A stretch of DNA of 64,000 nt, taken from a virus. Within the stretch, counting starts at the first letter, position 1. Each line of letters begins with the position of its first letter. A model generated the notes under the pieces. It saw only the letters and a list, made by a program, of their open reading frames with translations, had not been told where the DNA came from and did no database searches. This document shows, piece by piece, positions 8,562 through 39,180 of this stretch. The stretch is taken from positions 96,001 to 160,000 of IMG/VR virus record IMGVR_UViG_3300009408_000001. One strand, 5' to 3'. Both the position numbers and the translations under genes were made by a program.

Positions 8562-8673
8562 GAGGCCCTTCACGGGGCCTCTTTCTTTTTGCCGTTTCAG
8601 TCATTATTAAGAACCACATTACCTTACTGATAACACGTCCGTGTTATTTAATCCATTTGGAGATTTAAAGATG
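8562..8673 (+). repeat. Terminator-promoter-palindrome-RBS module, copy A
   Basis: GAGGCCCTTCACGGGGCCTC + T tract, CATTATTAAGAACCACATTACC, ATAACAC-GTCC-GTGTTAT, TTTGGAGA RBS; near-identical to 28490-28601. Confidence 0.9.
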
Positions 8674-16990: not shown

Positions 16991-18658
16991 ATGGGTGGAG
17001 TAGTAGTACGAGACGTCCGACTTAGGGGACGCGTTTTACATCTGGATGAAATCTGGATGGGTATAGAGGGCACGATTAACGATGGTCTGATCGTTGCTAA
17101 CATTGATGATGTGATCATGGGACCCGGTGGCATTTGGAGGGTCGCGTTGGTTGACGAGGTAACGTCCATTCCGGTGTTGGTGTCCATGATAGATGAATTG
17201 AGTGGCAAGAGCAGTACGCTCAGTTCGGATGTATTGGACGATGGGTTACGCCACTACCCTGCAGCCATCACCAGTCGTTTGTTTTTATCCACGGCGACCG
17301 AACCCTACACGATAACGTTGGATGCTACATTTCAGGTACGTGGGGCAGACGCGTCTCACCTCCGTCTCTTTTATGGCACGGATACCAGTTCAAAGGGAAA
17401 GGCAATAAGTCACAGTTTGGATACAAACGGCAAGATCCTGAGTGACCTTGTTGACTTACAGCCACTCGATCCGAATAACCTAGCCATCAAACGCCCTGGT
17501 GCAATGTACACGACCTTTAACATGCAAGACGGTGATACCTGTACCGCCGTATCTTACTCTGCGGATGGGAGAATCCATGATGAGCGGAGACTCGTGGTTA
17601 TCAACGCAGGTAGCATTGCTCCATTTGACACCAATGGGGTTTACCTAGAAGACATTAGTATTGAAAGTCCACTATTGTCTGCGACAGACCCACTGGTCAT
17701 CGAGAACCCGGTTAACCATACCTTTGACACGGCACTGATTACCGCGAAGTTACATTACAGTAACGGGGATGTGATACATCACCCTATAGACGGTAACAAA
17801 GCCATTCTGTTTGGCCTTTCTAACTTTGACAGTGGACGCGTAGGTAAGCCTGTGGAGTTAATGATAAGTTACTACCCGGGGCCAAGTGAACCAGCCATTA
17901 ACTTGAAAGGTGTGCTTCGTCCTAACTTATCGAAGACGTATACCCTGTCAAACGTAGCTACTGAAGGGGATTACTCCCTTAAGGTATACGCCATTCCATA
18001 TCGGGTTGCAGACAAGTGGGCAGTACGATGGATCCTAACAGATGCAGCCTATGGGGTAGCATTAGACGTCAGTGCTCATACCACGGTACTCAACGACACA
18101 AACCGGGCATTTAACTTCGATAACGATGGAGTATTGCAACGGATGTTAGTGACAGTTAACGTGGGTGAGGCAAACAGCATCAAATACCCAGGACACATTC
18201 ACACCCAGAAATTGGATATTTCGTTCCCCAGTTTCAGCACCATCGATCACAGTAGCTGGGTCATGGATTACGGAATTGACGGGAACACCGTGTTTGGTAA
18301 GGACCTGTACGCTACGGTAAATCAAACGGGTGAAAAGGGATACAAGGTCGATTGTAACCTACCTGATATGAACACCTGGTTGGACACCTTGTACCGTGGT
18401 GTTGATCCAGTGTACGATCCTGCATCCTATGGGACAGCACCGGTACCGACACACGTGCGTGTGGAACACGGGGGTCCAGATGGAAGAAAGGTCATCGGGG
18501 AGTTCCCTGTAGATGAGTGGGACCTTGTGCATTACATGGGGTCCTCTGGTACATGGGAAGACACAATGTCGATGAGTCTGGTATGGCTTGTTAAGACAGT
18601 GGATACTACCCTGACCCTGGCCATGTCTCCTCTTCAAATAAAATACCTTCTGGTATAA
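16991..18658 (+). CDS. Virion structural protein (phiKZ gp26-like)
   Basis: 555 aa; immediately upstream of terminase. Confidence 0.65.
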   Translation: MGGVVVRDVRLRGRVLHLDEIWMGIEGTINDGLIVANIDDVIMGPGGIWRVALVDEVTSIPVLVSMIDELSGKSSTLSSDVLDDGLRHYPAAITSRLFLSTATEPYTITLDATFQVRGADASHLRLFYGTDTSSKGKAISHSLDTNGKILSDLVDLQPLDPNNLAIKRPGAMYTTFNMQDGDTCTAVSYSADGRIHDERRLVVINAGSIAPFDTNGVYLEDISIESPLLSATDPLVIENPVNHTFDTALITAKLHYSNGDVIHHPIDGNKAILFGLSNFDSGRVGKPVELMISYYPGPSEPAINLKGVLRPNLSKTYTLSNVATEGDYSLKVYAIPYRVADKWAVRWILTDAAYGVALDVSAHTTVLNDTNRAFNFDNDGVLQRMLVTVNVGEANSIKYPGHIHTQKLDISFPSFSTIDHSSWVMDYGIDGNTVFGKDLYATVNQTGEKGYKVDCNLPDMNTWLDTLYRGVDPVYDPASYGTAPVPTHVRVEHGGPDGRKVIGEFPVDEWDLVHYMGSSGTWEDTMSMSLVWLVKTVDTTLTLAMSPLQIKYLLV

Positions 18659-22142: not shown

Positions 22143-22170
22143 GAGGCCCTTAACGGGGCCTCTTCTTTTT
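22143..22170. terminator. Bidirectional terminator of the repeated GAGGCCC family
   Basis: GAGGCCCTTAACGGGGCCTC flanked by A-rich and T-rich runs. Confidence 0.85.
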
Positions 22171-23785
22171 ATGTATAATGCTTGTAGGTTAGAATGCGGA
22201 GTGCTAAATAGACCAGTACCGCTATACGCGCAGGAGCGGTCGTAGAGCTGGACTTGTGCGCAATAGGTGATCTACTTAGGATATGTTCCATTTCGTCCCT
22301 TACGTACAGGATATCGGCATTTGTAACCTGTGATGACCGGAACATGTTCCTTAAGTTAACGACCAGGTGGATCATGGTATCTCCTGTCTTACCATTCTCC
22401 CGGTAGTAGTCGGTTATGTAGAGGATCATTTTTTTTACCATCTGGTGGATATCAAAGTACTTTGTATCCTCGTGGTGTTCCGATATGAAAGCCAACAGGA
22501 CCTTAACGTGTTTCATCTGCACAGTAGGAACCATGGCTAATGTCTGATCTAACAGATCGTCCTTAACCAAGTCAATCGGGTCTGCAATCACCCGGTCCAT
22601 TAGACGTACCAGAGTGTCGCTGTCGTCGACGTACTCCCGAATGGTTATCTCACCCTCCCTAGACACATAAGAAGACTGTGACATGACCCTGGTCTCCTTC
22701 TTAAGGAGATCGTGGTACAGTATGTTGATCTTCACCACCAACTTACGAATTCGTGTCTGGGTATCTGCCACTGCGTACAGAATCCGATCATCCGGTGCAA
22801 AGTCCATGAACGCCTTGTGATGCACACACGCCTTAGAACTCATGACTTCTGCACGGTGGTTAATGACCCCGCCCCAGGTATGGTACTTCTTAAGCAAAGA
22901 CTTCTTACTCAATGATTCGTACAGGGCCATTGCTACACTCTCTTGTGCAGCGTACTTATACGAGCGAGACATAAGCGAAGATAGGAACTTGTTATGCATC
23001 ATCCTCCATACTGCCTGAGAGGCGTACTGCTTGTCTTTGTCAGACAACTTAGGGTTGGTTAGAAATCGGTGTGCCAAGTAGACGTACGACATGTTCAATG
23101 CGGAACCGGTTACTTCCCACCCTGGGTTTACTTCTCTTTGATCGTGGTAATCGTCTACCAGTGCGCTCCAGTCGTCTACCCCTAGTATTTCCTCGATCCA
23201 AAGACGATCGTCGATTGAGGGGGCGTAGCGGAACTTATAGACCCCTACCAAGTTAGACCCCAGGAACTTTATGTTATCTTCTGACTTTGTTTCGAAGGCA
23301 TACACGTGTTCCATTACTTTCTGTGCGAACTTTCGATCAAAGGTAATGTGTTTTAGGTAATCCGTAAATACGGCTTTGATTGATTTGAACCTGCCTTTGG
23401 GATCTCGTTTCCATTCGGATTTGTCCTCGCTAGCCAGTGCCCTGAATTCTTTCCAGGTCCGGCTGGGTTTGTCTTGTCGGAAAGCCTCCATCGCTACGGC
23501 CATTTGTTCACCGGCTTCGTCTACATCATCTTCCGTATCATAGTTTGCATCACGGCCAGTGGCCTCATGCCAGGATGAAATATACTGGGTTTTTTTTACG
23601 TAAGTAGCGTAGTTGATGGTTGCGGAGATGTCCGTTTCCCACACGAGGTCGTCTGTGTCCACGTCCAGGGTGTACAGCCACACTGCCTTGTCTTGGGATG
23701 GGTTTGTTCCAGCGCCGTCTCCTGCGCGTTCTATGGCCTCTCCGGGTTGACTATACACCACCGTCTCAGATGGGAAACGAGTCAT
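22169..23785 (-). CDS. Probable head protein with acidic propeptide (phiKZ gp32-like)
   Basis: Long ORF (start 23785 or 23818); acidic N-terminal region ending AVAME-AF. Confidence 0.55.
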   Translation of the reverse strand: MTRFPSETVVYSQPGEAIERAGDGAGTNPSQDKAVWLYTLDVDTDDLVWETDISATINYATYVKKTQYISSWHEATGRDANYDTEDDVDEAGEQMAVAMEAFRQDKPSRTWKEFRALASEDKSEWKRDPKGRFKSIKAVFTDYLKHITFDRKFAQKVMEHVYAFETKSEDNIKFLGSNLVGVYKFRYAPSIDDRLWIEEILGVDDWSALVDDYHDQREVNPGWEVTGSALNMSYVYLAHRFLTNPKLSDKDKQYASQAVWRMMHNKFLSSLMSRSYKYAAQESVAMALYESLSKKSLLKKYHTWGGVINHRAEVMSSKACVHHKAFMDFAPDDRILYAVADTQTRIRKLVVKINILYHDLLKKETRVMSQSSYVSREGEITIREYVDDSDTLVRLMDRVIADPIDLVKDDLLDQTLAMVPTVQMKHVKVLLAFISEHHEDTKYFDIHQMVKKMILYITDYYRENGKTGDTMIHLVVNLRNMFRSSQVTNADILYVRDEMEHILSRSPIAHKSSSTTAPARIAVLVYLALRILTYKHYT

Positions 23786-23853
23786 TGCTTCTTCTTTAAC
23801 TGCAACGTACATGTACATATGTGGGTTCCCTATGGTAAGTATAGGATCCGACG

Positions 23854-23923
23854 TATTTCAAAACAATATTACCTTACTGATAACACGTCCGTGTTATTTA
23901 TTCTAATTGGAGCTTTACTTATG
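23854..23923 (+). promoter_or_regulatory. Promoter-palindrome-RBS module
   Basis: TATTTCAAAACAATATTACCTTACTG, ATAACAC-GTCC-GTGTTAT (23880-23897), TTGGAG. Confidence 0.85.
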
Positions 23924-24742
23924 AACAAACCTGTCTTTTTCAATCGTAATGTTCCCCTTGATGAATTCAAGGATCTCTTCGAAACAAAACTGGTGCCGGT
24001 TGAACTGGGTCGACATTACCTGCGTCCACCACAGGCAACCATGACCTCCTCGTGGGTAGCCGGTACTGACGTAATTCGCCATGTCACTGTACCCGGGTAT
24101 GACCACGATTGGGCGATGGTGTACGGTAGCATTGTAACCGAGACAGTACACATTGTTCCCCTGATCCCTCACATGGACGGTGTTACCCAGAGTATCCTGT
24201 TACTATTGGTAGACCACCGAAATTGCACACTGGACCTTGTAGAGGTAGTTTACACCGAGGAGCCGATTCACACCCTAACCGGGGAGGACATCATAGCACG
24301 TGTATCTGCGTACCTTCAAGCCGAACGTGAGAATGTGCTTTTATTGGAACGCGTTGAAGCAGACGATGGGTTTACGAACTGGCCCGACCCCGATGTGTTC
24401 CAAATCGAAGGCGGTACCCTGAGCGGACTTGCACACGCCATTGAAAGGGGGGGTAACCCCATGCTAGCGAAACATGTCCGGGAAACCCTGGTCGGGATGC
24501 AGGGTGATGGGAATACCGACCCTACAACTATGACATGGGATGCCACGGAGTATTTACGGATGTGGGGTAGTCCTGCGTCCACGGTGGAAACGGGAGAACC
24601 CGAGGGTGAATCCCAGAGACATAGTTTGGACGATGAAGTGGAACCTAATAGCGTAACCTGGGCACTGGACGATGCCACTGTGTCGGCCATTGCAGCATTG
24701 CTGATTGAAGCCCACCTACCGGAGGACCAGGGCGATGACTGA
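23921..24742 (+). CDS. Acidic hypothetical protein, probably early
   Basis: ATG 23921 after the module RBS. Confidence 0.8.
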   Translation: MNKPVFFNRNVPLDEFKDLFETKLVPVELGRHYLRPPQATMTSSWVAGTDVIRHVTVPGYDHDWAMVYGSIVTETVHIVPLIPHMDGVTQSILLLLVDHRNCTLDLVEVVYTEEPIHTLTGEDIIARVSAYLQAERENVLLLERVEADDGFTNWPDPDVFQIEGGTLSGLAHAIERGGNPMLAKHVRETLVGMQGDGNTDPTTMTWDATEYLRMWGSPASTVETGEPEGESQRHSLDDEVEPNSVTWALDDATVSAIAALLIEAHLPEDQGDD

Positions 24743-25010
24743 GAAGTCGGGTAATAATGCGAGTCGTACCGAAAAGGGATTCGACATCGTAGTTGATGCA
24801 TTGTCTGACGTACCAGAGGTGTATGTACGCCATATGAACGAACATCTTTTAACAGATAAAGGAAAGAGTAATATGAAAAACAACGCCTACGGGAGTGGGG
24901 TTCTCCCCCGGACATGGGGGTCTAATAGATCCGTGGCAACCAGACCGAACAACCATAAGCAAGGGGGACCCGTACAGTCTCGTGGAAAGGGCAAAAGTAA
25001 GCGGTACTAA
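24735..25010 (+). CDS. Small hypothetical protein with basic C-terminus
   Basis: ATGACTGA overlap with the upstream stop; GGAGGA/AGGG upstream. Confidence 0.6.
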   Translation: MTEKSGNNASRTEKGFDIVVDALSDVPEVYVRHMNEHLLTDKGKSNMKNNAYGSGVLPRTWGSNRSVATRPNNHKQGGPVQSRGKGKSKRY

Positions 25011-25674
25011 CCCAAGGGGATTGACCTGTGTAAAAGCGATAAGTGTGAAACAGGTGGAGATGAACCCTTTAGAGACCCGTTCGATGAACGCATCAAACAC
25101 TATACCAGTGTATACGACATCGGGTCCTCACACCCCCTATACTTGAACAGCCCTTCTGAGTACACGGTTACACGTAAGACTTACCTTACTACCTTACCAG
25201 GTCCTCGTATGTCTAAAGGTAAAGGTAAGGTTAAACGGTACTGATATACCTTCACTTCTTTCACTTCTATTATTAATAAAGGAGGTACCTATAGTGTAGA
25301 CGTCATACGCACCTATCCTGTAAAAGGGATAGGGGTGGAGATGAACCCTTTAGAGACCCGAAGGGTCTAATAGATAAGTGAACGAAGTGAACTCCTTACT
25401 ACCTAACCATAACAGTTACTAGAGTAGTTAAGGTAATGACAATAGAGGACTAAAGGGTAGTACTGACTATACCCTATACATGAAGGTAACTATACACTAC
25501 CTTTAATGTAATGGTTACTACTTGACATACGGGATTAGACCTGATTAAGGATAAGGGATAGATAGACTTAACATAGATACATGATAGTAATACATGTAAG
25601 CTATGAGGTAATGAGATACACTGAAGTGATAAGGGTAAGTAATGATGCTTACTCTAAACTAGGGGAATGCGAAA
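25011..25674. other. Structured non-coding region (candidate origin or ncRNA)
   Basis: No credible ORF; 27-bp and 15-bp direct repeats; nested inverted repeats. Confidence 0.6.
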
Positions 25675-26154
25675 ATGAGTAATACAGTGGTTAAAGGGGT
25701 TGTACCACTTCTTAGCTTACATGACCCCATTCGTCCACCTGTAGAGGACTGTGACCTATACACCGGACCTAACGGAGACCAGATCATCGTAATGCCCGAT
25801 GGCAACCACCTGCTTATTCGGCATAGCGAACACTATACGCTGCCTTACGTCATTGACTTACCCCTTACCTTGGATATCCACGCTAGGTCGGATAAGTGGA
25901 GACGGGGGTGGGAAGACACTCACTTACAAGTTAGAGAACAGGTGTTGACTATAACGACATGGGGTTCCCATAGTAGTCGTCGAGTTTTAGTTAGGAACCG
26001 CCCCATCTTGGGAATGGTTCCTCTTTCTGGGAAACGCTTACCTAAACAACAAGTCTGTATGTTAAAGGATCGTTCCCTTATCCTTGTTAACCCAGAGACA
26101 GCGGAAATAACTGAGCTGTATACACAGAAACCTACCGGGCGTAAAGAGCAATGA
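25675..26154 (+). CDS. Hypothetical protein
   Basis: AGGGGA RBS; 159 aa. Confidence 0.7.
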   Translation: MSNTVVKGVVPLLSLHDPIRPPVEDCDLYTGPNGDQIIVMPDGNHLLIRHSEHYTLPYVIDLPLTLDIHARSDKWRRGWEDTHLQVREQVLTITTWGSHSSRRVLVRNRPILGMVPLSGKRLPKQQVCMLKDRSLILVNPETAEITELYTQKPTGRKEQ

Positions 26155-26348
26155 ATGCTGAAGGGGTACACATGTACCCCCTTGTGGGAGAACGCAGCTG
26201 TGAGGGCATTCTAGAGGGTACAGTACGTATAGAAAGGGACCTGCCACAGTACAACCAATACGATTTACTGGATAATGGTTCGAACGTAGGTGTCAACGTA
26301 TCCCGATATACGAACCAAAGTCAGTTACATATCCCAGTAACAGCATAA
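26151..26348 (+). CDS. Small hypothetical protein
   Basis: ATGA overlap; followed by a terminator. Confidence 0.6.
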   Translation: MNAEGVHMYPLVGERSCEGILEGTVRIERDLPQYNQYDLLDNGSNVGVNVSRYTNQSQLHIPVTA

Positions 26349-26352
26349 GCAG

Positions 26353-26454
26353 GAGGCCCCGTTAAGGGCCTTTTCTTTTTTCTTTGCCCTCACGCATATT
26401 TCAAAACCATATTACCTTACTGATAACACATCCGTGTTATTGATTCTAATTGGA
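26353..26454 (+). repeat. Terminator-promoter-palindrome module with inverted terminator and degenerate RBS
   Basis: GAGGCCCCGTTAAGGGCCTT, CATATTACCTTACTG, ATAACAC-ATCC-GTGTTAT (26423-26440), TTGGAT in place of TTGGAG. Confidence 0.85.
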
Positions 26455-26549
26455 TATCGAACACGTGTTCGATGATAGAGTGCACGGACTACTGAAGGAA
26501 GACCAGTCCATGGTATCTATTTACATCCAAGCCACCTGAGGATAAGTAA

Positions 26550-26726
26550 TTGTTCCTGTACATCCCTAAAAAGAAACCAGTTCCTAAACGTGGAGATATC
26601 ATCTCCACCCGGGGTAATGTAACCTACGTTCGTTTTAAGGTAGAACCCCGCCGGTTCATTAAGGGGTCTAGTGAAAAATGCGTCAGGGTTAACCCTGACA
26701 AGGACGATACCGATAAACCAACATAA
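26550..26726 (+). CDS. Small basic hypothetical protein (58 aa, TTG start)
   Basis: GAGGA 7 nt upstream of TTG; stop just before the terminator. Confidence 0.4.
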   Translation: MFLYIPKKKPVPKRGDIISTRGNVTYVRFKVEPRRFIKGSSEKCVRVNPDKDDTDKPT

Positions 26727-26730
26727 ATAG

Positions 26731-26820
26731 GAGGCCCTTCACGGGGCCTCTTTTTTATTTGCGTTCCAGCCATTATTAAGAACCACATTGTTATTTAATT
26801 CATTTGGAGATTTAAAGATG
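26731..26820 (+). repeat. Terminator-promoter-RBS module with a 22-bp internal deletion
   Basis: Same terminator 20-mer, CATTATTAAGAACCACATT joined directly to GTTATTTAATTCATTTGGAGATTTAAAGATG. Confidence 0.9.
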
Positions 26821-27480
26821 AATAACCGCTTAGAAACAAAAGTCTGTGTAGGCCCCTATCTAATATCCGTATCAAAGGGGACAGTATGCATAACTGCTAT
26901 GGATTCTGTACCCTCCGAAATGGGGAAACCCAAGTTTAAAGACGCAGTTGGAATTATCCCGGGTGCCGGAAGTCGTGTTTACATTGTGTGTTCCTCCGGA
27001 CGCAAGGAACTGGCCATTCGGGAATACAATGTGTATGGGAATGAGTCCGTCGATGTAGAACTAGCCATGGCGACTTGCACTCGTCTAGGTATGGAAGAAG
27101 CCGGACCTTACTCGTGTACCCGGGTACACGATGGGATTTTGTACCACAGTAGGGACATGTCCGAATCCCAGACAATGGTACCGGTACCCATTGGGGTCGG
27201 TTTAAAGGTGCGTGGTTTGATTGGTAACCTCTCCACCCCTACGGTGGTCATATTGGAAGATGGTACCGTTCTGTCGCTGACTGCCAATGGAAAACTAACG
27301 TTCTTATTTACAACGGTTAATCCGTACGAAGATGAACTTGCAGTACACCATTACAGTAAGCCCACGAACGATGGAGATCCTGGACAAATAGTACAGTGGT
27401 GGAAATCTTACCATGAACTAACGACACTGGCTTCAAAGTACTACGACAACATAGTCCCTTCCAAGAAAAACATAACCTAG
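26818..27480 (+). CDS. Hypothetical beta-rich protein
   Basis: ATG 26818 after the module RBS. Confidence 0.75.
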   Translation: MNNRLETKVCVGPYLISVSKGTVCITAMDSVPSEMGKPKFKDAVGIIPGAGSRVYIVCSSGRKELAIREYNVYGNESVDVELAMATCTRLGMEEAGPYSCTRVHDGILYHSRDMSESQTMVPVPIGVGLKVRGLIGNLSTPTVVILEDGTVLSLTANGKLTFLFTTVNPYEDELAVHHYSKPTNDGDPGQIVQWWKSYHELTTLASKYYDNIVPSKKNIT

Positions 27481-27489
27481 GAGAACAAC

Positions 27490-28470
27490 ATGACAAAATG
27501 TGAAGTATATGCAAATCACAAATTCGAAGGATACCTTCGGTTCAGTCAAGATTACATTGTCCTTCTTACCCCCTGTATGGATGATACCATCCGCTGGCAT
27601 AATGTCGTGCCCCCAGAAGGAGTAGATGTAGAGGTACACATTAAGGTAACCCAGGAAATGTTCGCGGCAGAAGGTGTCAAAGCCCTTGATAGACTGTTTA
27701 AACGAGTAACCCCTGAAGAACGGGAAGCCGTGCTTAACGCACACGGTTACGTAGACCTATATGGCGCATCGTACATGGTACACAACGGAACCCTATATTA
27801 CTTCATGGGCGATAACGTGTACACTGTCTTTGAGTTTTATCCCGTTACGGGGATTGTCCGTGATGGTTTGAGTGTGGTTACCACACAATCTTTCAAAGGC
27901 AAACCAATCGGACAGTACCGGGTAAGTCCAGAAAAGCCAGTACCCTTGTTGTTGGACCAAGACAACGAGCTGAACATTCCTAACTTACTCCCTTCCACTA
28001 CCTCCCTCTTGGATTTACAGCAGTTGGTCCGAGTCCCAGTGAGGCGACATTCCGGTGTGGCCAACTGGAACGTGGACATCACAAGAGCAGATACTACAGC
28101 GCACGTGATGCGTATTCACCATGACGATACTGATCTCGAATTTGAAATCGTTAATGGTTCGGTAACGGTGACTTCAGGCGGAGGCATTAGTGAAATAAAG
28201 ATTCAAGATGACCGGGTTGCATATTCCCTATGTCCAGTTGGTAACGACCGGTTATTAATCACATGTACGGATAATACAGTTTGGGAAACCTCTGTCGAGG
28301 GTGAAGTGATGTTAGCAACCCACCCATATGTTCCAGGCTACACGGTAACTGCGGTGTGTACCTTGGACCCTACGGAAGAAGACCCAGCGTGTTTCCGGGT
28401 TGACGCCATTCGTGTGGTAGACGGTGTGTTGGTACGGGGGTTCAACCTGGGTTATCTATTCTTTAGTTAA
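27490..28470 (+). CDS. Hypothetical beta-rich protein
   Basis: GGAGA RBS; 326 aa. Confidence 0.8.
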   Translation: MTKCEVYANHKFEGYLRFSQDYIVLLTPCMDDTIRWHNVVPPEGVDVEVHIKVTQEMFAAEGVKALDRLFKRVTPEEREAVLNAHGYVDLYGASYMVHNGTLYYFMGDNVYTVFEFYPVTGIVRDGLSVVTTQSFKGKPIGQYRVSPEKPVPLLLDQDNELNIPNLLPSTTSLLDLQQLVRVPVRRHSGVANWNVDITRADTTAHVMRIHHDDTDLEFEIVNGSVTVTSGGGISEIKIQDDRVAYSLCPVGNDRLLITCTDNTVWETSVEGEVMLATHPYVPGYTVTAVCTLDPTEEDPACFRVDAIRVVDGVLVRGFNLGYLFFS

Positions 28471-28489
28471 CCGACGACGACATAAATAA

Positions 28490-28601
28490 GAGGCCCTTAA
28501 CGGGGCCTCTTTCTTTTTTACCGTTTCAGACATTATTAAGAACCACATTACCTTACTGATAACACCTCCGTGTTATTTAATCCATTAGGAGATTTACCAT
28601 G
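28490..28601 (+). repeat. Terminator-promoter-palindrome-RBS module, copy B
   Basis: Near-identical to 8562-8673; palindrome ATAACAC-CTCC-GTGTTAT at 28559-28576. Confidence 0.9.
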
Positions 28602-29246
28602 GCTACATTGCTAAAAGTATTCCACATTATCGACCCGTCTGACTCATCGCCAGTTGTCCAACAATTATCTTTCGCGGTGGCAGATACTGACTACACGGTA
28701 GGCGCAGAAGTAATAGGCCACTTGGTGTTAACTTCTTCCATTGCCCAAGTTCGTCCATGGGAAGCACTGGAATGCAGGGTGGTACTTACCACCCCAGATC
28801 TAGTCAAGCTCACACTAACCCGAAAGGAGAACCCGGAAGACGTACATGCTCTCCTCTTTTCGATCGTGCTGGACGCCCTAGAATCAGAACCATCACATAG
28901 TCCTGATCTACGTCGGTACGCAGAGAACCCACAGATGCCTCATCCGGTGTTCCCGTCAATTCCGCCTAGTCCGCACGGTAACCAACCACAACCATTCCAG
29001 AGTTACTGCCATCCCCAACCCCATGTTCATCCTTCTGACTCAGTCTATTCAGCAAAGGGTGCTTTAGATTCCGCAATGGGTGATTTAGATTCCGCAATGG
29101 GTGATTTAGATTCCTCAATGGTTGCTTTAGATAAGTTTATAAATGGACCGAAACAGGGTCCTGCCCCTTCAGGTAAAACCCCCGCCAAACCTACAGAGGA
29201 AGTGAGAGAAACTGACCCGGCTTCTAAGAAACCCACCACGCATTAA
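28599..29246 (+). CDS. Hypothetical protein with P/Q-rich region and heptad repeat
   Basis: AGGAGA RBS; ALDSAMGDLDSAMGDLDSSMVALD. Confidence 0.8.
   Translation: MATLLKVFHIIDPSDSSPVVQQLSFAVADTDYTVGAEVIGHLVLTSSIAQVRPWEALECRVVLTTPDLVKLTLTRKENPEDVHALLFSIVLDALESEPSHSPDLRRYAENPQMPHPVFPSIPPSPHGNQPQPFQSYCHPQPHVHPSDSVYSAKGALDSAMGDLDSAMGDLDSSMVALDKFINGPKQGPAPSGKTPAKPTEEVRETDPASKKPTTH
29058..29132 (+). repeat. 21-bp tandem repeat (about 3.5 units)
   Basis: GGTGCTTTAGATTCCGCAATG / GGTGATTTAGATTCCGCAATG / GGTGATTTAGATTCCTCAATG / GTTGCTTTAGAT. Confidence 0.95.
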
Positions 29247-29289
29247 TAAACAACACGGGTGCTAACCCACCCGTGTACTTGGAGAACAC

Positions 29290-29775
29290 GTGAATACCTT
29301 ACAAATGCTGCAAGTCGACACCATTCTTTTTTCTACTCTTCTCGCCAACGCCCTACCTGTTGGGCACAAAGATAGGCAAGAAGCATTCTTAACCGCCCGT
29401 GCAGTAGAGAGGTCTCTAAAGGGTTCATCTCCACCGGAGTTGATTGATGTACGTGTCCAAAACATCTCCACCCGCAGTAAACTGGACTCCACATTGGATA
29501 ACCTAGACACATTGCAATCGACCTTACCTAGGGTAGATAGGTTACGCGAATTAGTAACTCGGTTAAAGGGAGCTACTGTTACCCTGTCCCTAAAGGAAGA
29601 AACCGTAGTAAAACATGCGGTTGCCCTCATTGGGTCACATTCCATGGTACCTCGTACTTTGTTACAGCGAGGTTTGGTTAAGACCGAGGAAGCGTGGCGT
29701 CGGGTTTCCGAGAAGCAACGAGAGAAAGATACAGAAGTAACCCACCGTAACCACCTACCTACCTGGGCAAAGTAA
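29290..29775 (+). CDS. Hypothetical helical protein
   Basis: GGAGA RBS with GTG start. Confidence 0.7.
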   Translation: MNTLQMLQVDTILFSTLLANALPVGHKDRQEAFLTARAVERSLKGSSPPELIDVRVQNISTRSKLDSTLDNLDTLQSTLPRVDRLRELVTRLKGATVTLSLKEETVVKHAVALIGSHSMVPRTLLQRGLVKTEEAWRRVSEKQREKDTEVTHRNHLPTWAK

Positions 29776-29951
29776 CCCATTGTATGTATAAGCTATTCTC
29801 CTGAGTAGTCCATTTGTGGTGGATGGAAACAGGCCTCAGGCGAGCACATGTATATGTGACATTCACACCCTTCCGTGTATCGGAAACGTTGTGCGACATG
29901 TACCGCTGTGTCCATATGTCTGAGAACCTGTTGGTAAATGGTGGTACTTGA

Positions 29952-29982
29952 GAGGCCCTTCACGGGGCCTCTTTCTTTTTTT
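29952..29982. terminator. Terminator of the repeated GAGGCCC family
   Basis: GAGGCCCTTCACGGGGCCTC + T tract between convergent genes. Confidence 0.85.
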
Positions 29983-29986
29983 GCCG

Positions 29987-30715
29987 TTAACGCGGTACAA
30001 ACATACCGGTGTACGTCTGGGCTTGTTTCTTATCTGCAAACACGTTTATTTTTTTCCATCGTTTCATCTCCGTCTCTTCGTACAGTTCAAATGAGTCAGC
30101 GTACTCGTCTACAATACTTCGTATGTGTTCACTCATGTTACCGTGGCTGAAGGCACTGAACCCGGTTGACAACGATAACTCCTTATGAACATAACCCTTC
30201 GCTGCCAACACACACAGTTTACCAAACTGCATCTGACTGGATACTGGTAGGTTGTGTAAGTTGGCATCGTGTGATAAGATGTAGCGTAATGCCACATGGG
30301 GGGATAACATTGTTTGAGGGGTAGCAATGGTGTTCGGCCCTACCAGGTAAACCTTTTCCGTACCCGGATGATTTGCATTCCCCATGGTACCTTCTGGGTG
30401 GATCGGTCCACGGTTAATAATAGCCAGTGGCTGTAAGATACTCCTCCCGTTTAACAGATCACTGGGTATAACCCACTGTGTCCCAGTTGGGTAGGTCTGG
30501 CGCGGGATGTTGGTTAAGTCCATTACCAATCGTTCACCAGTTACCATGAGTACATCTTTGAGTACAATGCCTCGTATGATCTCACTTACGATGCGGTCAT
30601 CGAGAGAGGCGATTTCGTATTGTCCTACGTTACGCCCGAATAAAGTCCGTTGAAGGATCTCTGTGTTTATCTCCCGGTAGATCCGGTCCAGACCATACTG
30701 AATGTGCGCCGACAT
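29987..30715 (-). CDS. Conserved hypothetical protein, possibly virion structural
   Basis: AAGGAGA RBS; 242 aa; lies near phuZ as in related phages. Confidence 0.65.
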   Translation of the reverse strand: MSAHIQYGLDRIYREINTEILQRTLFGRNVGQYEIASLDDRIVSEIIRGIVLKDVLMVTGERLVMDLTNIPRQTYPTGTQWVIPSDLLNGRSILQPLAIINRGPIHPEGTMGNANHPGTEKVYLVGPNTIATPQTMLSPHVALRYILSHDANLHNLPVSSQMQFGKLCVLAAKGYVHKELSLSTGFSAFSHGNMSEHIRSIVDEYADSFELYEETEMKRWKKINVFADKKQAQTYTGMFVPR

Positions 30716-30816
30716 AATTTGTCTCCTTATAAGTACATACGATCCACTACAAGCACATTACCTTTTAGACCGGGGTTAAATAAAGTAGAGCCATCCACCG
30801 GGTAAAAGGGATAAAT

Positions 30817-31434
30817 ATGTCTAACCAAACAATGCCGATCACGTATGTAGAAACATACGTACCCACCATAGGGTGGAAACAACTGGAACATTCGCTTAAT
30901 CTGGAACAAACCAGAAGCCTTTCATATTGGCTAACGGGTTATGGTAAGTGTAGCTACATGTACGGTGACCCAGACGGTAACGATCTAGTTGCATTACAGT
31001 TAGATAGGGGGCTCCCTTCTGGAAACCCATATTCGATAGACAGGTATGGTGTCTGTGTATTATCGCCTCCTGCCGGAAAGGAACACCTGGGTGACTATGG
31101 GTTCGGTTGGTTAACCTCAACGGAAGTAATCGAAGCACATGTTACACTACCCATGTATACTGGGAGAGGCATTATTTCCATAGCGGACTACAACGACATG
31201 CAAGAAGGAGACGCGCCCCCAGGCATCCCCGATATTTACCTAGCCGGGGACATGGTCGTGGTGTCTACCCCGGGTACAATAACCGAGTTAACGACGCACG
31301 TTAACGTCGAATGGAAAATCGACGTAAGTGCAGAGTTCAAACCCTTCGTAGACAGCCTAAAGAAACTGCATTACGAGGTGGGAGAAGTCCGACTTATCTT
31401 CGGATACGTGAAAACCAGGTCCAACCATTATTAA
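30817..31434 (+). CDS. Hypothetical protein
   Basis: 205 aa; CACATTACC motif at 30754-30762 upstream. Confidence 0.7.
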   Translation: MSNQTMPITYVETYVPTIGWKQLEHSLNLEQTRSLSYWLTGYGKCSYMYGDPDGNDLVALQLDRGLPSGNPYSIDRYGVCVLSPPAGKEHLGDYGFGWLTSTEVIEAHVTLPMYTGRGIISIADYNDMQEGDAPPGIPDIYLAGDMVVVSTPGTITELTTHVNVEWKIDVSAEFKPFVDSLKKLHYEVGEVRLIFGYVKTRSNHY

Positions 31435-31500
31435 GAACTACATTACCAACATGATAACACGTCCGTGTTATTCTTTCCATTTGGAGCTACATCTAACATG
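31426..31500 (+). promoter_or_regulatory. Promoter-palindrome-RBS module upstream of phuZ
   Basis: CATTATTAAGAACTACATTACC, ATAACAC-GTCC-GTGTTAT (31454-31471), CCATTTGGAG. Confidence 0.85.
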
Positions 31501-32535
31501 AGCAAAAACACCACAGAAAAACGAACCGTTGTAACCGTATATGGTTGTGGCGGTACTGGCGTGAACCATATCTTGCATTCCACTGGCACCCCGTTGGCTG
31601 AGCAGGAAAGTGGGCTTTACCCCATGATGAAATATGTCGGGATTGATTCGTCGGCATCTAACTGTCGCAACTACATGGATGCAGCAGACGCCGCTGGTAT
31701 TCCAATTCACCTGTTAGCAGGTGAGATGGGGTTCGGTATGAATCGCCCTCAGGCTGTAAAGAAGTGCAGTCCCCACATCATTCCAATCTTACGGGATTAC
31801 CCACCTACCGATTTCAACATCCTGATTGGGTCTGCTGGTGGAGGAACAGGTTCAGTATTAGTCCCACTGATTGCTAACCAGTTACTGGAACGGAATATTC
31901 CATTCATCATCATGTTGGTTGGTTCCCGGTGTACATCAAGGGAAGCACAGAACACACTAGATACCCTCACCGGTATCCGCAATGCAGCTCGGAAACACCA
32001 GACACCCATCGAGTTGTGCTATTTCGAAAATGGCAAGAACGACGAGAAGGGCCAAGACTGGGTTGGTACCATCCCAGAGGTAGACCGTCGGATGGATGCT
32101 ACCTTCCGAAGTAATCTTCTGTTACTCGCCGGTACCTGCGAGCGCTTGGATAACACAGATGTCCGGAACTTCCTGGACTACACATCCGTGGTTTCTTCTG
32201 ACATCGCCCCTCAGTTGGTTCGGTTGATTCCGTTCGTGATGGACGGTGAAAATGCACCTTGGAGCGAGTATGCCCGTAAGACGATTACCTCGGTAAACCT
32301 GATGCGTTCTCCCGGTGACGATGAAGCACCTGTGGATGCATTATATGGGACCGTGGGTTTGTACGGGGAAGACACGCATCCTTCCTCAATTCCGAACTAC
32401 GCCTTCATCACTACGACGGAAGGTGTCTCTACTATCTTCTCCGAACTGAAAGCAAAGGTGGAGATGTTCAAGGAGATCGAAGAAGAACTCACCACCACTG
32501 ACGTAGACGAAGACTGGGGTGAATCACTCATCTAA
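31498..32535 (+). CDS. phuZ: Phage tubulin PhuZ
   Basis: GCGGTG (T1), tubulin signature GGGTGS, LDNTD (T7 loop), acidic C-terminal tail; start at ATG 31498. Confidence 0.93.
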   Translation: MSKNTTEKRTVVTVYGCGGTGVNHILHSTGTPLAEQESGLYPMMKYVGIDSSASNCRNYMDAADAAGIPIHLLAGEMGFGMNRPQAVKKCSPHIIPILRDYPPTDFNILIGSAGGGTGSVLVPLIANQLLERNIPFIIMLVGSRCTSREAQNTLDTLTGIRNAARKHQTPIELCYFENGKNDEKGQDWVGTIPEVDRRMDATFRSNLLLLAGTCERLDNTDVRNFLDYTSVVSSDIAPQLVRLIPFVMDGENAPWSEYARKTITSVNLMRSPGDDEAPVDALYGTVGLYGEDTHPSSIPNYAFITTTEGVSTIFSELKAKVEMFKEIEEELTTTDVDEDWGESLI

Positions 32536-35413: not shown

Positions 35414-35819
35414 AGACCTATCCCCTGGTGACAGGGTCAATTTCACCATGTACGCCAGCATCGCTGGAACAAACCGAATAAGCGGTGTCGTAAACTCCGT
35501 ATCAAACTACACGGGTCTTCCAATTGGTAACACGGTCAATACTGACCATGTTAACCTATACAGAGAAGTACCAATTGAGAACAAGGGTAGTATGGGAGCG
35601 GGTCCAGAGGGGTACCTGTACCTAGTGGTAACACAAGACACTGGTGAAATACTTGCATGTGGGTTCCCCTGGATAATTGAAAGCACGCTTGTATCTAACA
35701 TCTCAAGGAAGCTGGTTATTGAAATAGCCGACTTTCAAGACGGGGACGACATCTTCGTTCGTAACATTCTGGAAGTAAAGGGGTATAAGGTTTCCTCTTC
35801 GGAAATTGTACAGTCGTAG
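35403..35819 (+). CDS. Conserved hypothetical protein (phiKZ gp49-like)
   Basis: GGAGG RBS; directly upstream of the PolB gene. Confidence 0.65.
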   Translation: MAIKDLSPGDRVNFTMYASIAGTNRISGVVNSVSNYTGLPIGNTVNTDHVNLYREVPIENKGSMGAGPEGYLYLVVTQDTGEILACGFPWIIESTLVSNISRKLVIEIADFQDGDDIFVRNILEVKGYKVSSSEIVQS

Positions 35820-35901
35820 GATAAGAGGGCTTTCGGGCTCTCTTTTTTATGTTGTTTTACGGGTAGGTACGATGGTGTATACCACAATGGAGACTGTACA
35901 C

Positions 35902-38073
35902 ATGGGCTACCCATTCTTACGAGATACGTCAGAGTACGTTAGAAACATAGACCTAATCGAACACTACCACCAGAACATGGGTACTTACCTTAGAGTAATG
36001 ACACCAATGTCCGGCGTGGAAGCAATTGCCTTTTCAAAACGGAATGCAATACCAAATGACCCGATGTTAAAAGTGCTGGAACGCGTCCCGGACGGAGATA
36101 GGTACAAGCGAAAAGTGTCACTATTAGACTTACTTAAGAACGTCCATCATAACTCCCGGTTCTTATCCCCCTCAATGGTGGTCTATGAGAACCCCGACGT
36201 GAAGCTGAGTTTTGTAGCGGAGTATCTTATCAATGGGATCAACGGAAGAAACTCAGAACGTTCCCTGGCTAAAGCAGCATTTCTCGTGCAAGATTACGGC
36301 GAGGCAACCTTCCGTAACAACAACCAAGCCAACTTCAAAACCGGTAACAACACGGTCAGTGGTTCACATGTTTCAGAACACAACCCACTGCATAATCCCT
36401 CCTGCCACACGACGCTTACTTCCATATGTAGGTGTGCCACGAGCTATTCTAATGCCGCAGTAGAGAAGATGTTAGCTGGTAACAGGCACTACACCACAGA
36501 ACTCATTACTCTGGGTGAACTGGCAGCGTTGATTCGTCACGCAGATATGTCCGCCCTAGAGAAAGTAATAACTCAGTTTAACATGACTATCCCAACCGTC
36601 ACTCAGCTGAGTGACTATATAAAGAAGAACACACTTCGTTACTGGGAATCCAAAGCCGGTTGGGGTAGCATACATGCCTTCATTAGTAAGATGTCCCCAA
36701 TGGAGAGGGTGGCTGTGGCGTACACGAACGATCTGAACGCGATGCGGTTGTTTTCTCCGAAGGCCACACACTTGTTCCTAACCAAGTTAGCCGAGAAGAA
36801 AGAAGCAAGTGTGGAAACAGCAGGGTTGGACATCGGACACTTGCGGGAAGAGATGGCAATTCATGTCGGTTTAGTCATGTCAGACGAGATAAAGGGAATC
36901 TCATTATCCGACGCTAAGAAAGATAAGCCTGAAACGTACTCACGGTATTACAATACCGTTAAGAACGTAGAGTCCGTCATGGAAGAATACCGCGAGTTCA
37001 TTGCTAACTTCTTCCTGACAGATAACCTCCCCAGTTCGATATACGACATCATGCATTCTGTCCGTAAGATCGTACCGTTGTCAGATACGGATTCCACGTT
37101 GTTTACCCTTCAGGACTGGGTAGAGTGGTTACAAGGTAGCCAGGGTTTTGAGAGACGACATCGTGCATCTGCTGGCGCAGTGTTCTTTGTCTTTGCCAGT
37201 CACGTTAACCACATGTTGGCACTGATGTCTAGAAACATGGGAGCAACTGACGAGAACCTATTCAGATTGGTTATGAAGGGCGAGTTCTACCAACCGGTAT
37301 TGGCCGTGACAAACATGACCAAACATTACACCTCGTTCAAGTGGGGTTCAGAAGGGGATTTCTATGATGTAATGGAAATGGATACTAAGGGGTCAAACTT
37401 GAAGAACTCCAAACACCCTCCTGAGATAACCGACATCCTGAACAAGTACATCAAGCAGATGATGGAATGGGCAATGGTTCCATTGGAACAAAGGCCAGGT
37501 ATAAAAGAGATGCTACGTGTTCCGTCACAGGTATCTGACCGCATCCTTACATCACTCAGTAAGGGAGAGATGAAGTACCTAAGCTCCGGAAAGGTTAATA
37601 CTAAGGAAGCATATACCAACCCAGAGGCATCACCCCTAATCTACTATAAGTTCTGGAACACGGTGTTTGGAGCAGAACACGGTTATTCTGACTTACCGCC
37701 GTATGACGCTACTAAGGTAGCCGTAACCATTACCAAGAAAGGAAAGTACAAGGAGTGGCTTGCCACACAAGACCCCACCTTTGCAGGGAAGTTCAGCCGT
37801 GCAATGGAAGACATGGGAAGAACATACCTAACCTCAATCCTAGTGCCAACTGCCGCTCTTTCTTCTGGACAACTTCCTAAGGAAATCCATTCCATGTTGG
37901 ATTACCGCCGGATTGAAACAGAGCTTACAGCGGGCTTTACGATCATGTTGGAAACAGCAGGGGTACAAACCCGTAACAAAAAGATGTCGAGGCTGCTGTC
38001 GGAAGAAGTAGATGTAGCAATATACGAAGGACAGAACTTAGACGACTGGGCTGAGTTCCTACCACCGGCATAG
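35902..38073 (+). CDS. Family B DNA polymerase, polymerase subunit (phiKZ gp50-like)
   Basis: SDTDS motif, TKHY segment; GGAGA RBS before ATG 35902; synteny with chmA. Confidence 0.85.
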   Translation: MGYPFLRDTSEYVRNIDLIEHYHQNMGTYLRVMTPMSGVEAIAFSKRNAIPNDPMLKVLERVPDGDRYKRKVSLLDLLKNVHHNSRFLSPSMVVYENPDVKLSFVAEYLINGINGRNSERSLAKAAFLVQDYGEATFRNNNQANFKTGNNTVSGSHVSEHNPLHNPSCHTTLTSICRCATSYSNAAVEKMLAGNRHYTTELITLGELAALIRHADMSALEKVITQFNMTIPTVTQLSDYIKKNTLRYWESKAGWGSIHAFISKMSPMERVAVAYTNDLNAMRLFSPKATHLFLTKLAEKKEASVETAGLDIGHLREEMAIHVGLVMSDEIKGISLSDAKKDKPETYSRYYNTVKNVESVMEEYREFIANFFLTDNLPSSIYDIMHSVRKIVPLSDTDSTLFTLQDWVEWLQGSQGFERRHRASAGAVFFVFASHVNHMLALMSRNMGATDENLFRLVMKGEFYQPVLAVTNMTKHYTSFKWGSEGDFYDVMEMDTKGSNLKNSKHPPEITDILNKYIKQMMEWAMVPLEQRPGIKEMLRVPSQVSDRILTSLSKGEMKYLSSGKVNTKEAYTNPEASPLIYYKFWNTVFGAEHGYSDLPPYDATKVAVTITKKGKYKEWLATQDPTFAGKFSRAMEDMGRTYLTSILVPTAALSSGQLPKEIHSMLDYRRIETELTAGFTIMLETAGVQTRNKKMSRLLSEEVDVAIYEGQNLDDWAEFLPPA

Positions 38074-38106: not shown

Positions 38107-39180
38107 CTATTCCAGGTACGTCCTGAGGTCAACCCAAAGAGTCCTCGCATTAAAGCGAACGCTGTCTTCTTCGATTCGGTCAATGGTACCACGTGACTCC
38201 ACCAACCGGTTAGCTTGTTTCCACCTGTTTAACAAGTTGGACATGTGTCGGTATTTTGGGGTACGACTAACCACCGCATGTACCAATGGTAAGTATGCTA
38301 AGAACCGAATGGTATCGTTCATTACGGTTTCGTTGATATCCAGCAATGGGAACCCACTGAATAACATGCCTTCACCATTCAAGTTTGGCAAGTGCCCCAA
38401 GGTGTCAATTGGACTTTGTCCCTTCTTAGTAGCCCTTTGAAATAATTTCCAGTACAATTTCGATATGACCTCTGTCCTGTTCGTTAAAAATATAGGTGGT
38501 CTTTCCACTGTCGTGAACATCTCATCACCACGGGTAGAAGCATTGTTATAACTGGACTGTAACTGGGTGTCCAGTGCTCCTGGTAGAACGAATCTCCCAA
38601 CGAACTGCTCTACCGACTCTTGCATGGTATCTTCTAGCTTCCGATTAACTTCGTACCACCCGTGGTACATGACAGATAACTCCGGTATGGAGATCGCCAG
38701 GATTGCGTACTCATATGTATCCGATCCTTCACCCCCCTCTGGAAGGTACCAGTGGGGTAGAACATACGGGTGACATAGCACGCGAAGTGGGGAAAGGGAC
38801 TTCCAATCTCCATTGTACGATATCACCTCGGTGACACTGTAGTGATCTGACTGTACTAAATATTCAAAGCAGTCTTTATAGTATACTGACTTTGAGGACT
38901 TGCCTCTGTTTACAGGACTATATGCCTTTACGGCAAGAGATAGGTCATCCTCTAGGTCTTTTGCAGCGGAATACTGCATCAGTGGGGTAGACCCCAGTCG
39001 TGTTACTAACCCATAGACCAACTTAACAATTGGGTGGTCACCACCAGCAGAATGTCCGTAGGTTTGATAGTGTTTCTTTACCTGTTCTCGTTCGTCGACC
39101 TGTAAACCAAGAAGGCGATTTAGCTTTGTATCAGTATACCTGCCGACATTAGCAGGGGTGGTGCCTATTAGCGGGTACAT
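38107..39180 (-). CDS. Conserved protein (phiKZ gp52-like)
   Basis: Antisense gene between PolB and chimallin, as in phiKZ. Confidence 0.65.
   Translation of the reverse strand: MYPLIGTTPANVGRYTDTKLNRLLGLQVDEREQVKKHYQTYGHSAGGDHPIVKLVYGLVTRLGSTPLMQYSAAKDLEDDLSLAVKAYSPVNRGKSSKSVYYKDCFEYLVQSDHYSVTEVISYNGDWKSLSPLRVLCHPYVLPHWYLPEGGEGSDTYEYAILAISIPELSVMYHGWYEVNRKLEDTMQESVEQFVGRFVLPGALDTQLQSSYNNASTRGDEMFTTVERPPIFLTNRTEVISKLYWKLFQRATKKGQSPIDTLGHLPNLNGEGMLFSGFPLLDINETVMNDTIRFLAYLPLVHAVVSRTPKYRHMSNLLNRWKQANRLVESRGTIDRIEEDSVRFNARTLWVDLRTYLE

Follow-up and report, generated by a model that had tools for sequence, protein, structure and literature searches.

In T4-type phages, hyperplastic regions of the genome are organised by promoter-early-stem-loop (PeSL) cassettes (PMC2839356, PMC4122927), and among phiKZ-like phages, small RNAs have been mapped by ONT-cappable-seq in 201phi2-1 and phiKZ (PMC11512511). 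In this study, we examined a repeat-rich stretch of DNA, positions 25011 to 25674 of a window of 64,000 nucleotides, taken from a 197.5-kb IMG/VR record with an estimated completeness of 71%, of which it covers bases 96001-160000 (positions are those of the window, unless given as genome positions). The record comes from a hydrothermal-vent metagenome and belongs, by its gene content, to an uncultured phiKZ-like, nucleus-forming jumbo phage (chimallivirus). A preliminary description had presented the stretch as non-coding DNA, and had proposed a replication origin or a structured RNA. The best explanation appears to be neither a dedicated origin nor a single large RNA gene, but a patch of gene birth and decay in an early-type operon of an accessory region: we estimate at about 0.5 the probability that the stretch consists of decaying tandem copies of a small orphan gene, with a structured spacer and a leader, inside one operon.

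The locus resembles PeSL regions in that short orphan genes lie between repeated modules of terminator, promoter, hairpin and ribosome-binding site (here with 25 promoter sites on one strand), that close strains differ in content, and that small genes seem to duplicate and then decay. It differs in belonging to a phiKZ-like, nucleus-forming phage, in lying inside a unit rather than at a cassette junction, and in containing a dispersed motif of 15-27 nt that has no counterpart in the PeSL model as outlined in those reports. With the small RNAs of 201phi2-1 and phiKZ, the locus would share the character of structured, untranslated chimallivirus segments, the published ones deriving mostly from 5' leaders. 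Those RNAs, however, are shorter than 250 nt and have a mapped start and a premature terminator, whereas no cassette promoter or intrinsic terminator is found in the stretch; they show no sequence or Rfam similarity to it, and the part of the report devoted to them mentions no perfect complements in other phage genes (PMC11512511).

Two frames with a shared tail in a predicted transcription unit

The first 234 nt of the stretch look like coding sequence, contrary to the uniformly non-coding character initially attributed to it. Behind the TAA stop (25008-25010) of the open reading frame (ORF) X1 (Table 1), a second frame, X2, is in phase with X1 and open over 78 codons, until TGA 25244. The in-frame hexamer score of X2 is 0.23 per codon, within the range of real short genes, when the 95th percentile of a null composed of 470 open wrong-frame stretches of long genes is 0.146. 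In each third of X2, taken as a sub-window, this frame is the best of the three and its score is positive. X1, which is annotated as a gene in the source record, scores 0.19 per codon and has a GGAGG 9 nt upstream of its ATG.

Both frames end with a basic tail, GP..S.GKGK.KRY, which is absent elsewhere in the genome and in which 10 of 14 residues are identical. At the DNA level, 17 of the 42 nt differ, mostly at third codon positions (proportion of differences 0.84 at synonymous sites, pS, vs 0.27 at nonsynonymous sites, pN), and when these 17 differences were placed at random, 0 of 20000 placements preserved 10 of 14 residues. Given the shared residues, the saturated synonymous sites and the outcome of the random placements, the two tails have long been maintained as protein over these 14 codons, which are all that the test spans.

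The 27-bp perfect direct repeat reported at 25053-25079 and 25334-25360 is indeed present (0 matches in 100 shuffles), and the similarity around it reaches 40 nt at 85%. Its second copy lies in a short open fragment, X3, whose residues CKRDR-GGDEPFRDP align with CKSDKCET-GGDEPFRDP at the head of X2, if one allows for two substitutions and an in-frame indel of 9 nt; a tblastn search with X2 also matched X3 (genome 121319-121360). The repeat would thus result from a duplication of the X2 head in X3. Past the 27-mer block and short blocks, local alignment of X2 with X3 revealed nothing shared, and a tandem triplication of the whole unit, for which local alignment likewise gave only short blocks, was set aside as unsupported. 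So was a patchwork of genome fragments: matches of 12-14 nt elsewhere are ordinary in number, and those of 13-15 nt found for the stem arm and for GGGTCTAATAGAT are therefore background.

The repeated modules of this genome combine four elements: an intrinsic terminator (GAGGCCC-loop-GGGCCTC with a run of T), a promoter whose core is TTACCTTA, a palindrome of small size, and GGAGAT as ribosome-binding site. With a matrix built from 17 promoter sites, which covers one promoter class, 25 near-identical sites were found genome-wide (scores 14-56), all on the plus strand, with the consensus TCAG.CATTATTAAGAACCACATTACCTTACTGATA (for instance at 8619, 23869, 26412 and 28548). Promoter-like motifs had been noted within the stretch, and TTACCTTA does occur at 25181 (plus strand) and 25429 (minus strand), but neither scores as a promoter: the best matrix score across 24700-25700, on both strands, is 1.3, other promoter classes not being covered by the matrix. 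No intrinsic terminator precedes 26351. Since the nearest cassette promoter and terminator are at 23869 and 26351, with none in between, the stretch is, by these signals, the interior of one plus-strand transcription unit, in which gene 23921 and then X1 precede the stretch, and gene 25675 and then a 65-codon ORF follow it. This unit is probably transcribed as a whole.

Table 1. Features of the locus, with window coordinates.
Feature	Position	Strand	Remarks
Cassette promoter	23847..23882	+	core TTACCTTA at 23869; matrix score 43.6; starts the unit containing the stretch
First gene of the unit, 273 aa, orphan	23921..24742	+	coding score 0.42/codon; no family match
X1, 91-codon orphan ORF	24735..25010	+	start overlaps upstream stop (ATGACTGA); ends GPVQSRGKGKSKRY-stop
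X2, putative hidden X1 paralogue	25026..25244 (frame open from 25011)	+	ends GPRMSKGKGKVKRY-stop
27-mer copy 1	25053..25079	+	reads GGDEPFRDP in X2 frame
Inverted repeat, 141 nt, predicted three-way junction	25251..25391	not assignable	long stem around two hairpins
X3, 28-codon open fragment without start codon	25295..25381 (open 25295-25378)	+
27-mer copy 2	25334..25360	+	between hairpins 25312-25333 and 25354-25368
Putative A-rich, C-poor untranslated leader of gene 25675	25401..25674 (274 nt)	+	35% GC, 39% A
Downstream gene, 159 aa, orphan	25675..26154	+	weak ribosome-binding site; coding score 0.10/codon; other five frames strongly negative
First intrinsic terminator after the stretch, unit end	26351..26374	+
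Third repeat copy, 25 nt perfect	29411..29435	-	antisense in plus-strand gene 29290-29775; encodes SLKGSSPP
PhuZ tubulin gene	31465-32535		6-14 kb downstream of the stretch, with the next two
phiKZ-type DNA polymerase gene	35806-38073		downstream of the stretch
Nuclear shell protein (chimallin) gene	39390-41333		downstream of the stretch

A predicted structured spacer and a putative stop-dense leader

As had been described, the two arms of a long stem (25251-25272 and 25368-25391) form three Watson-Crick segments of 8, 7 and 6 pairs, interrupted by one mismatch and a bulge of 2 nt, and enclose hairpins 25312-25333 and 25354-25368. A 15/16-bp repeat at 25184 and 25394 (94% identical) and a purine-rich 3' part (60% purine over 25401-25674) were found as well. 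These repeats and stems are thereby confirmed, and exceed chance expectation; the interpretation first given to them is partly supported. In particular, the stretch is the largest of the window only as a gap between ORFs of at least 100 aa, and it is not gene-free, since 25011-25244 is open and coding-like.

The predicted fold of 25245-25400 has an energy of -51.4 kcal/mol (z = -4.6), and in a sliding 150-nt scan of 24450-26200, the sole strongly structured window was 25251-25400 (z = -5.8 for the plus and -4.1 for the minus strand). The proposal of a structured RNA can therefore still be entertained for 25251-25391, which folds strongly relative to shuffles inside a presumably transcribed unit, but not for the rest of the stretch, where z lies between -1.6 and +0.2 in most 150-nt windows. 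Because all pairs are Watson-Crick, they do not tell which strand folds, or whether it does so as DNA or as RNA. Within the junction (25279..25299, plus strand), a strong Shine-Dalgarno-like AAGGAGGT is followed after an 8-nt spacer by GTG and immediately by TAG; part of this site is paired, in the fold, with the CCUUUA segment of the 27-mer. Between its two copies, the 27-mer is conserved in sequence and not in pairing: as the hairpins preceding them use different partners, there is no internal covariation.

We also considered a programmed -1 frameshift at the 27-mer, where C_CCU_UUA follows a Shine-Dalgarno-like run and precedes a hairpin, and where a -1 shift would enter the X2 frame. This candidate was dropped because the X2 frame is already the best one upstream, no convincing zero-frame gene exists, and the hairpin begins 1-2 nt past the heptamer.

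Early mRNAs of T7-group phages carry processing hairpins for ribonuclease III (RNase III) between cistrons. The present structure is similar in that the stem between the cistrons spans about two helical turns and is interrupted by an internal mismatch and by a bulge; the T7 sites, however, are single hairpins with an internal loop, conserved among relatives, whereas a three-way junction is predicted here. The structure may influence how the two halves of the mRNA are processed or translated, or how stable they are.

Downstream of X2, 52 stop codons are present in the three plus-strand frames of 25245-25674, and 25469-25618 is, with 67% A+T, the third most AT-rich 150-nt window of the contig, promoter cassettes being equally rich. 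A stem around the start of gene 25675 (25593-25609 with 25707-25723) was rejected: it is not in the best fold (z = -1.9).

At low depth, near-identical copies of the phage DNA are also found in two other samples, one from a vent and one from a microbial mat. One contig of the second vent sample matches from ATG 25675 on, but its preceding 90 nt are unrelated and end with CAGGAGGACAGTT, with GGAGGA 5 nt upstream of the same ATG; these 90 nt are absent from the present genome. This suggests a strain in which gene 25675 has another upstream neighbour and a stronger ribosome-binding site. In the microbial-mat sample, a 6-nt deletion (25214-25219) removes one AAAGGT unit in frame, and thereby one K-G pair of the X2 tail.

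Proposed gene duplication and decay, and points that weigh against it

The course of events that we favour would be the following. An ancestral small gene would have duplicated in tandem, X1 being the intact copy. X2 would be an open, protein-constrained copy that lacks a canonical start, and either gives a low-level product, from CTG 25026 or by coupling to X1 termination, or was recently silenced. X3 would be a recent, truncated, partial copy of the X2 head. It is bracketed by the 22-bp inverted repeat, so that the polycistronic mRNA would fold into the 141-nt three-way junction, and the final 274 nt would serve as an A-rich, stop-dense leader for gene 25675. The presence of orphan genes amid repeated terminator-promoter cassettes favours this scheme, as do the copying by the genome of pieces of its own genes (patches of 43 nt and 20 nt) and the variation between strains immediately upstream of ATG 25675. 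If true, the locus would be a snapshot of small orphan genes duplicating, losing their starts and decaying in accessory regions of jumbo phages, useful for annotation, as a case of a hidden gene without a canonical start, and not surprising.

Several points weigh against gene decay. First, X2 has no ATG, GTG or TTG before 25143, where the first TTG lacks a Shine-Dalgarno sequence, and its sole plausible start is CTG 25026, 6 nt after AAGGGG (25014-25019). Protein searches found no homologue of X1 or X2, the two matches of X2 (E 2e-4 to 6e-4), both with long Ig-repeat proteins, being judged spurious. Without canonical start and homologues, the coding case for X2 is built on single-genome statistics. 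Second, 27 nt stay perfect between X2 and X3 when the preceding 19 nt display two substitutions and an indel, which simple decay does not explain. Nor does it explain the 25 nt inverted in gene 29290 and the perfect 15-nt core, devoid of one-mismatch variants, in three more genes (see below). Last, another contig of the second vent sample has 1 difference in 267 nt over 25211-25477, when coding pieces differ by about 2.3%; this low divergence hints at constraint on the structured part (p ~0.02, or 0.13 minus one outlier piece).

A dispersed 15-nt motif and the possibility of antisense pairing

The 15-nt core of the repeat, GGTGGAGATGAACCC, has six perfect copies, two in the stretch and one in each of four genes (genome 7601-8203, 40823-41968, 63549-64823 and 125290-125775), where all four are antisense. 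No variant with one mismatch was found, one has two mismatches, and the 21 with three were taken as background. The six copies have a common 5' edge and a variable 3' extent (15, 17, 18, 25 or 27 nt). The site is translated as GSSPP in three genes and VHLH in one. In the conserved virion protein (phrog_3293), the region of the 15-mer aligns gap-free with homologues from five phages, so that the 15-mer replaced existing residues and was not inserted.

More generally, perfect 17-21-nt matches between unrelated genes are dispersed in the genome in excess, mostly in the same coding sense, when about 0.04 match of 20 nt is expected (examples are genome 46392/53404, 75089/124162 and 84002/171835). 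Outside the cassettes, no 10-mer is more frequent in the genome than the decamer GGTGGAGATG, with 13 copies against ~0.65 expected in genes after codon shuffling. Its orientation is mixed; in the window it lies at 15572, 25053, 25334, 26599, 29425, 29462 and 32457, and six of these sites are within 7.4 kb (25053-32457).

Two readings of the motif fit: short tracts may have been copied recently, always beginning at a fixed point, or pairing with the operon RNA may be under selection. Six letter-perfect sites, four of them antisense in unrelated genes and one without change in protein length, call for a cause, and either of these would be new chimallivirus biology. The motif could matter more than gene decay; in chimalliviruses, regulation at the RNA level is documented and not understood.

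A tentative alternative to gene decay, with perhaps one chance in four of being right, is that the untranslated part of the operon mRNA is an antisense regulator. Its two 25-27-nt copies would form perfect duplexes with the mRNA transcribed from gene 29290-29775, which lies 4 kb downstream, and the 15-nt core with three further phage mRNAs, including that of the conserved virion protein, for post-transcriptional tuning. Extended complementarity does exist, with 25 perfect nt for gene 29290-29775 and 15-18 nt for the three others. The predicted 25-nt duplex (-48.7 kcal/mol) is long enough for RNase III, and the 15-nt core gives -29 kcal/mol. All 4 copies outside the stretch are antisense to their host gene, but this orientation has only p ~0.06-0.13, one sense copy of the 3' half of the 25-mer is present at genome position 40746, and the decamer core is found 5 times in sense vs 6 in antisense. 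Pairing of 15, 17, 18 and 25 nt from a fixed 5' edge is what a seed plus extension would give, and the replacement of residues at constant length in the virion protein also agrees with pairing; the total lack of one-mismatch variants, however, fits recent copying better than an old regulon, and other perfect patches of 17-21 nt exist in the genome in both orientations. The two transcription units share the same plus-strand promoter class, therefore the two RNAs would coexist, but no promoter of this class and no terminator lie in the stretch itself. In the local fold, both copies are mostly paired, with a 15-nt unpaired probability of at most 0.009; for 8-nt windows this probability is up to 0.18 in copy 1, above the 90th percentile, and mostly at most 0.04 in copy 2. 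The target sites, moreover, are inside coding sequences and not at ribosome-binding sites. In favour of regulation, small RNAs are documented in phiKZ-like phages (PMC11512511).

Slightly less probable is a self-targeting antisense regulon, in which a structured RNA from the untranslated middle of the early operon would carry two copies of a 25-27-nt guide, and in which the target sequences would have been rewritten in situ so as to agree with it.

In type I toxin-antitoxin loci of E. coli (IstR-1/tisB, OhsC/shoB), trans-encoded antisense RNAs pair perfectly with their targets over about 18-21 nt. The likeness resides in a long perfect complementarity, sufficient for RNase III, between an untranslated RNA and an mRNA encoded elsewhere. 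In contrast with the present case, those RNAs are adjacent and divergent to their target, have their own promoter and terminator, and act on a small hydrophobic toxin, whereas the partner here is a 161-aa helical orphan, 4 kb away, with no hint of toxicity.

Two further ideas were dropped. An inversion of the DNA that separates 25334 from 29411 would call for a recombinase, which is missing from the contig, and no such joint was seen in the contigs examined, in which rare forms would be undetectable. For a retroelement or an RNA-guided nuclease as partner, the contig lacks reverse transcriptase and TnpB.

Some further observations can be added. Gene 29290-29775 is coding on the plus strand (+33.9 vs -7.9), the strand called in the source record. 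Fully antisense to it, a 172-codon minus-strand ORF (29262-29780) reads the 25-mer as GGDEPFRD, in the frame used by X2 and X3; its negative coding score (-7.9) suggests a shadow ORF. Directly behind it, a hairpin at 29253-29276 with a T-rich tail resembles a minus-strand terminator. ORF 28599-29246 and the virion structural protein gene 16991-18658 share a 20-nt perfect inverted match (28945-28964 / 18271-18290), so that these two mRNAs would be complementary; genome position 186091 shares 17 of the 20 nt. Two long antisense patches are therefore contained in the unit that extends from promoter 28548 to terminator 29950. The genes at genome 7601-8203 and 40823-41968 encode orphan proteins with repeated strands of the G..LA.S..G..LAVGS type, reminiscent of FG-GAP/beta-propeller blades, with no family match. 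A perfect palindrome of the motif core, GTGGAGAT-ATC-ATCTCCAC, is located at 26590-26608 and is translated as GDIIST in an ORF of 58 codons (26550-26726), which starts with TTG and belongs to the next cassette unit.

Less probable explanations

We consider it improbable that X1 and X2 are a single gene giving two nested products, the longer one made by occasional read-through at TAA 25008, or by termination followed by reinitiation, which would add 78 residues and re-supply the basic tail, if this tail is needed at the very end of the protein. X2 does lie in phase directly behind the X1 stop, which is followed by a C, without a canonical start of its own, and both products would carry the same constrained C-terminal tail. 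However, an in-phase arrangement is expected 1/3 of the time by chance, AAGGGG with its 6-nt spacer and CTG is an independent, weak start, TAA is the main stop (83 of 157 genes, 32 of them with TAAC), and the contig has no suppressor tRNA. Recoding of TAA was rejected as unlikely on the same grounds, TAA being the commonest stop on a contig devoid of tRNA.

Iteron-type origins such as lambda ori consist of at least 4 iterons, closely and regularly spaced, adjoining or inside the initiator gene. A DNA-level origin, as had been proposed for the stretch, or a cluster of binding sites for a phage protein, with GGTGGAGATG-type repeats as sites, the A/T-rich 3' part as unwinding region and the C-GAA-G mini-hairpin as single-strand signal, is very unlikely. 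In its favour, direct repeats lie beside an A/T-rich segment (67% A+T in the 150 nt from 25469, a richness equalled by promoter cassettes), as in lambda; 6 of the 13 exact decamer sites are within 7.4 kb, adjoining the PhuZ and DNA polymerase genes; the core palindrome of 8 bp at 26590-26608 is perfect; and the stems are purely Watson-Crick, as expected of DNA-level palindromes. Here, however, only two copies are found, 281 bp apart, without a regular array, the third one being inverted and 4 kb away, and no recognisable initiator gene is present among the neighbours. The clustering of decamers has p ~0.07 once local duplicates are collapsed, and a site repeated six times without a degenerate variant is unusual for protein binding. 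Cumulative GC skew, which had been suggested as a check, follows gene strand and makes no turn at the locus, its extremes being at genome 3427 and 179728, and not 121 kb. One strain contig does without the stretch sequence upstream of gene 25675, and recombinase, reverse transcriptase and TnpB are all missing from the contig. With neither an iteron array nor a turn in GC skew, the origin is unsupported.

Least probable of all, 25251-25391 would be a miniature inverted-repeat mobile element inserted behind X2: its ends are inverted repeats of 22-24 nt that flank ~95 nt of non-coding DNA, and this agrees with such an element, as does the strain-variable sequence upstream of gene 25675, but the flanks differ, without target-site duplication, the element is single copy in 197.5 kb, no transposase family is present on the contig, and the interior is homologous to X2 rather than foreign.

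Source phage, database searches and neighbouring genes

The assignment to chimalliviruses, and not to N4-like phages, follows from the large terminase, about 40% identical to those of phiKZ-like jumbo phages of Vibrio, Xanthomonas and Erwinia, from an adjoining minus-strand gene that belongs to phrog_2921, of the same phiKZ-like group, and from the PhuZ, phiKZ-type DNA polymerase and chimallin genes. An analogy with the hairpin promoters of N4, drawn in the preliminary description, thus finds no basis in this phage.

No relative of the locus was found by a DNA search of a phage database, by comparing the flanking proteins with IMG/VR, or by searching the 25-mer in IMG/VR and a 20-mer in JGI metagenomes and GTDB genomes; the 15-mer gave only single chance matches in IMG/VR, on unrelated contigs. 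Protein searches returned self-matches, apart from one relative of the 273-aa protein encoded upstream (179 aa, 54% identity), on a 1-kb contig. The neighbouring proteins received no function from the atlas, Pfam, PHROGs, PADLOC or NCBIfam. With the Rfam 15 covariance models, no match with E <= 1 was found in 24000-27000, and none reached the gathering score in the whole window. No RNA sequencing run was listed with the stretch sequence.

Minus-strand genes 22169-23818, 29987-30715 and 38107-39180 lack the cassette promoter class; as all 25 sites are on the plus strand, minus-strand genes must use another one. A Y-RNA/Ro reading of the stretch, suggested by a TROVE gene close to the syntenic position in a distant relative, was rejected, the contig having no TROVE gene and no Rfam match. 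In Vibrio phage vB_pir03, a TROVE (Ro60-like) protein is annotated (record 62625-64175) about 2.5 kb from the phrog_2921 homologue.

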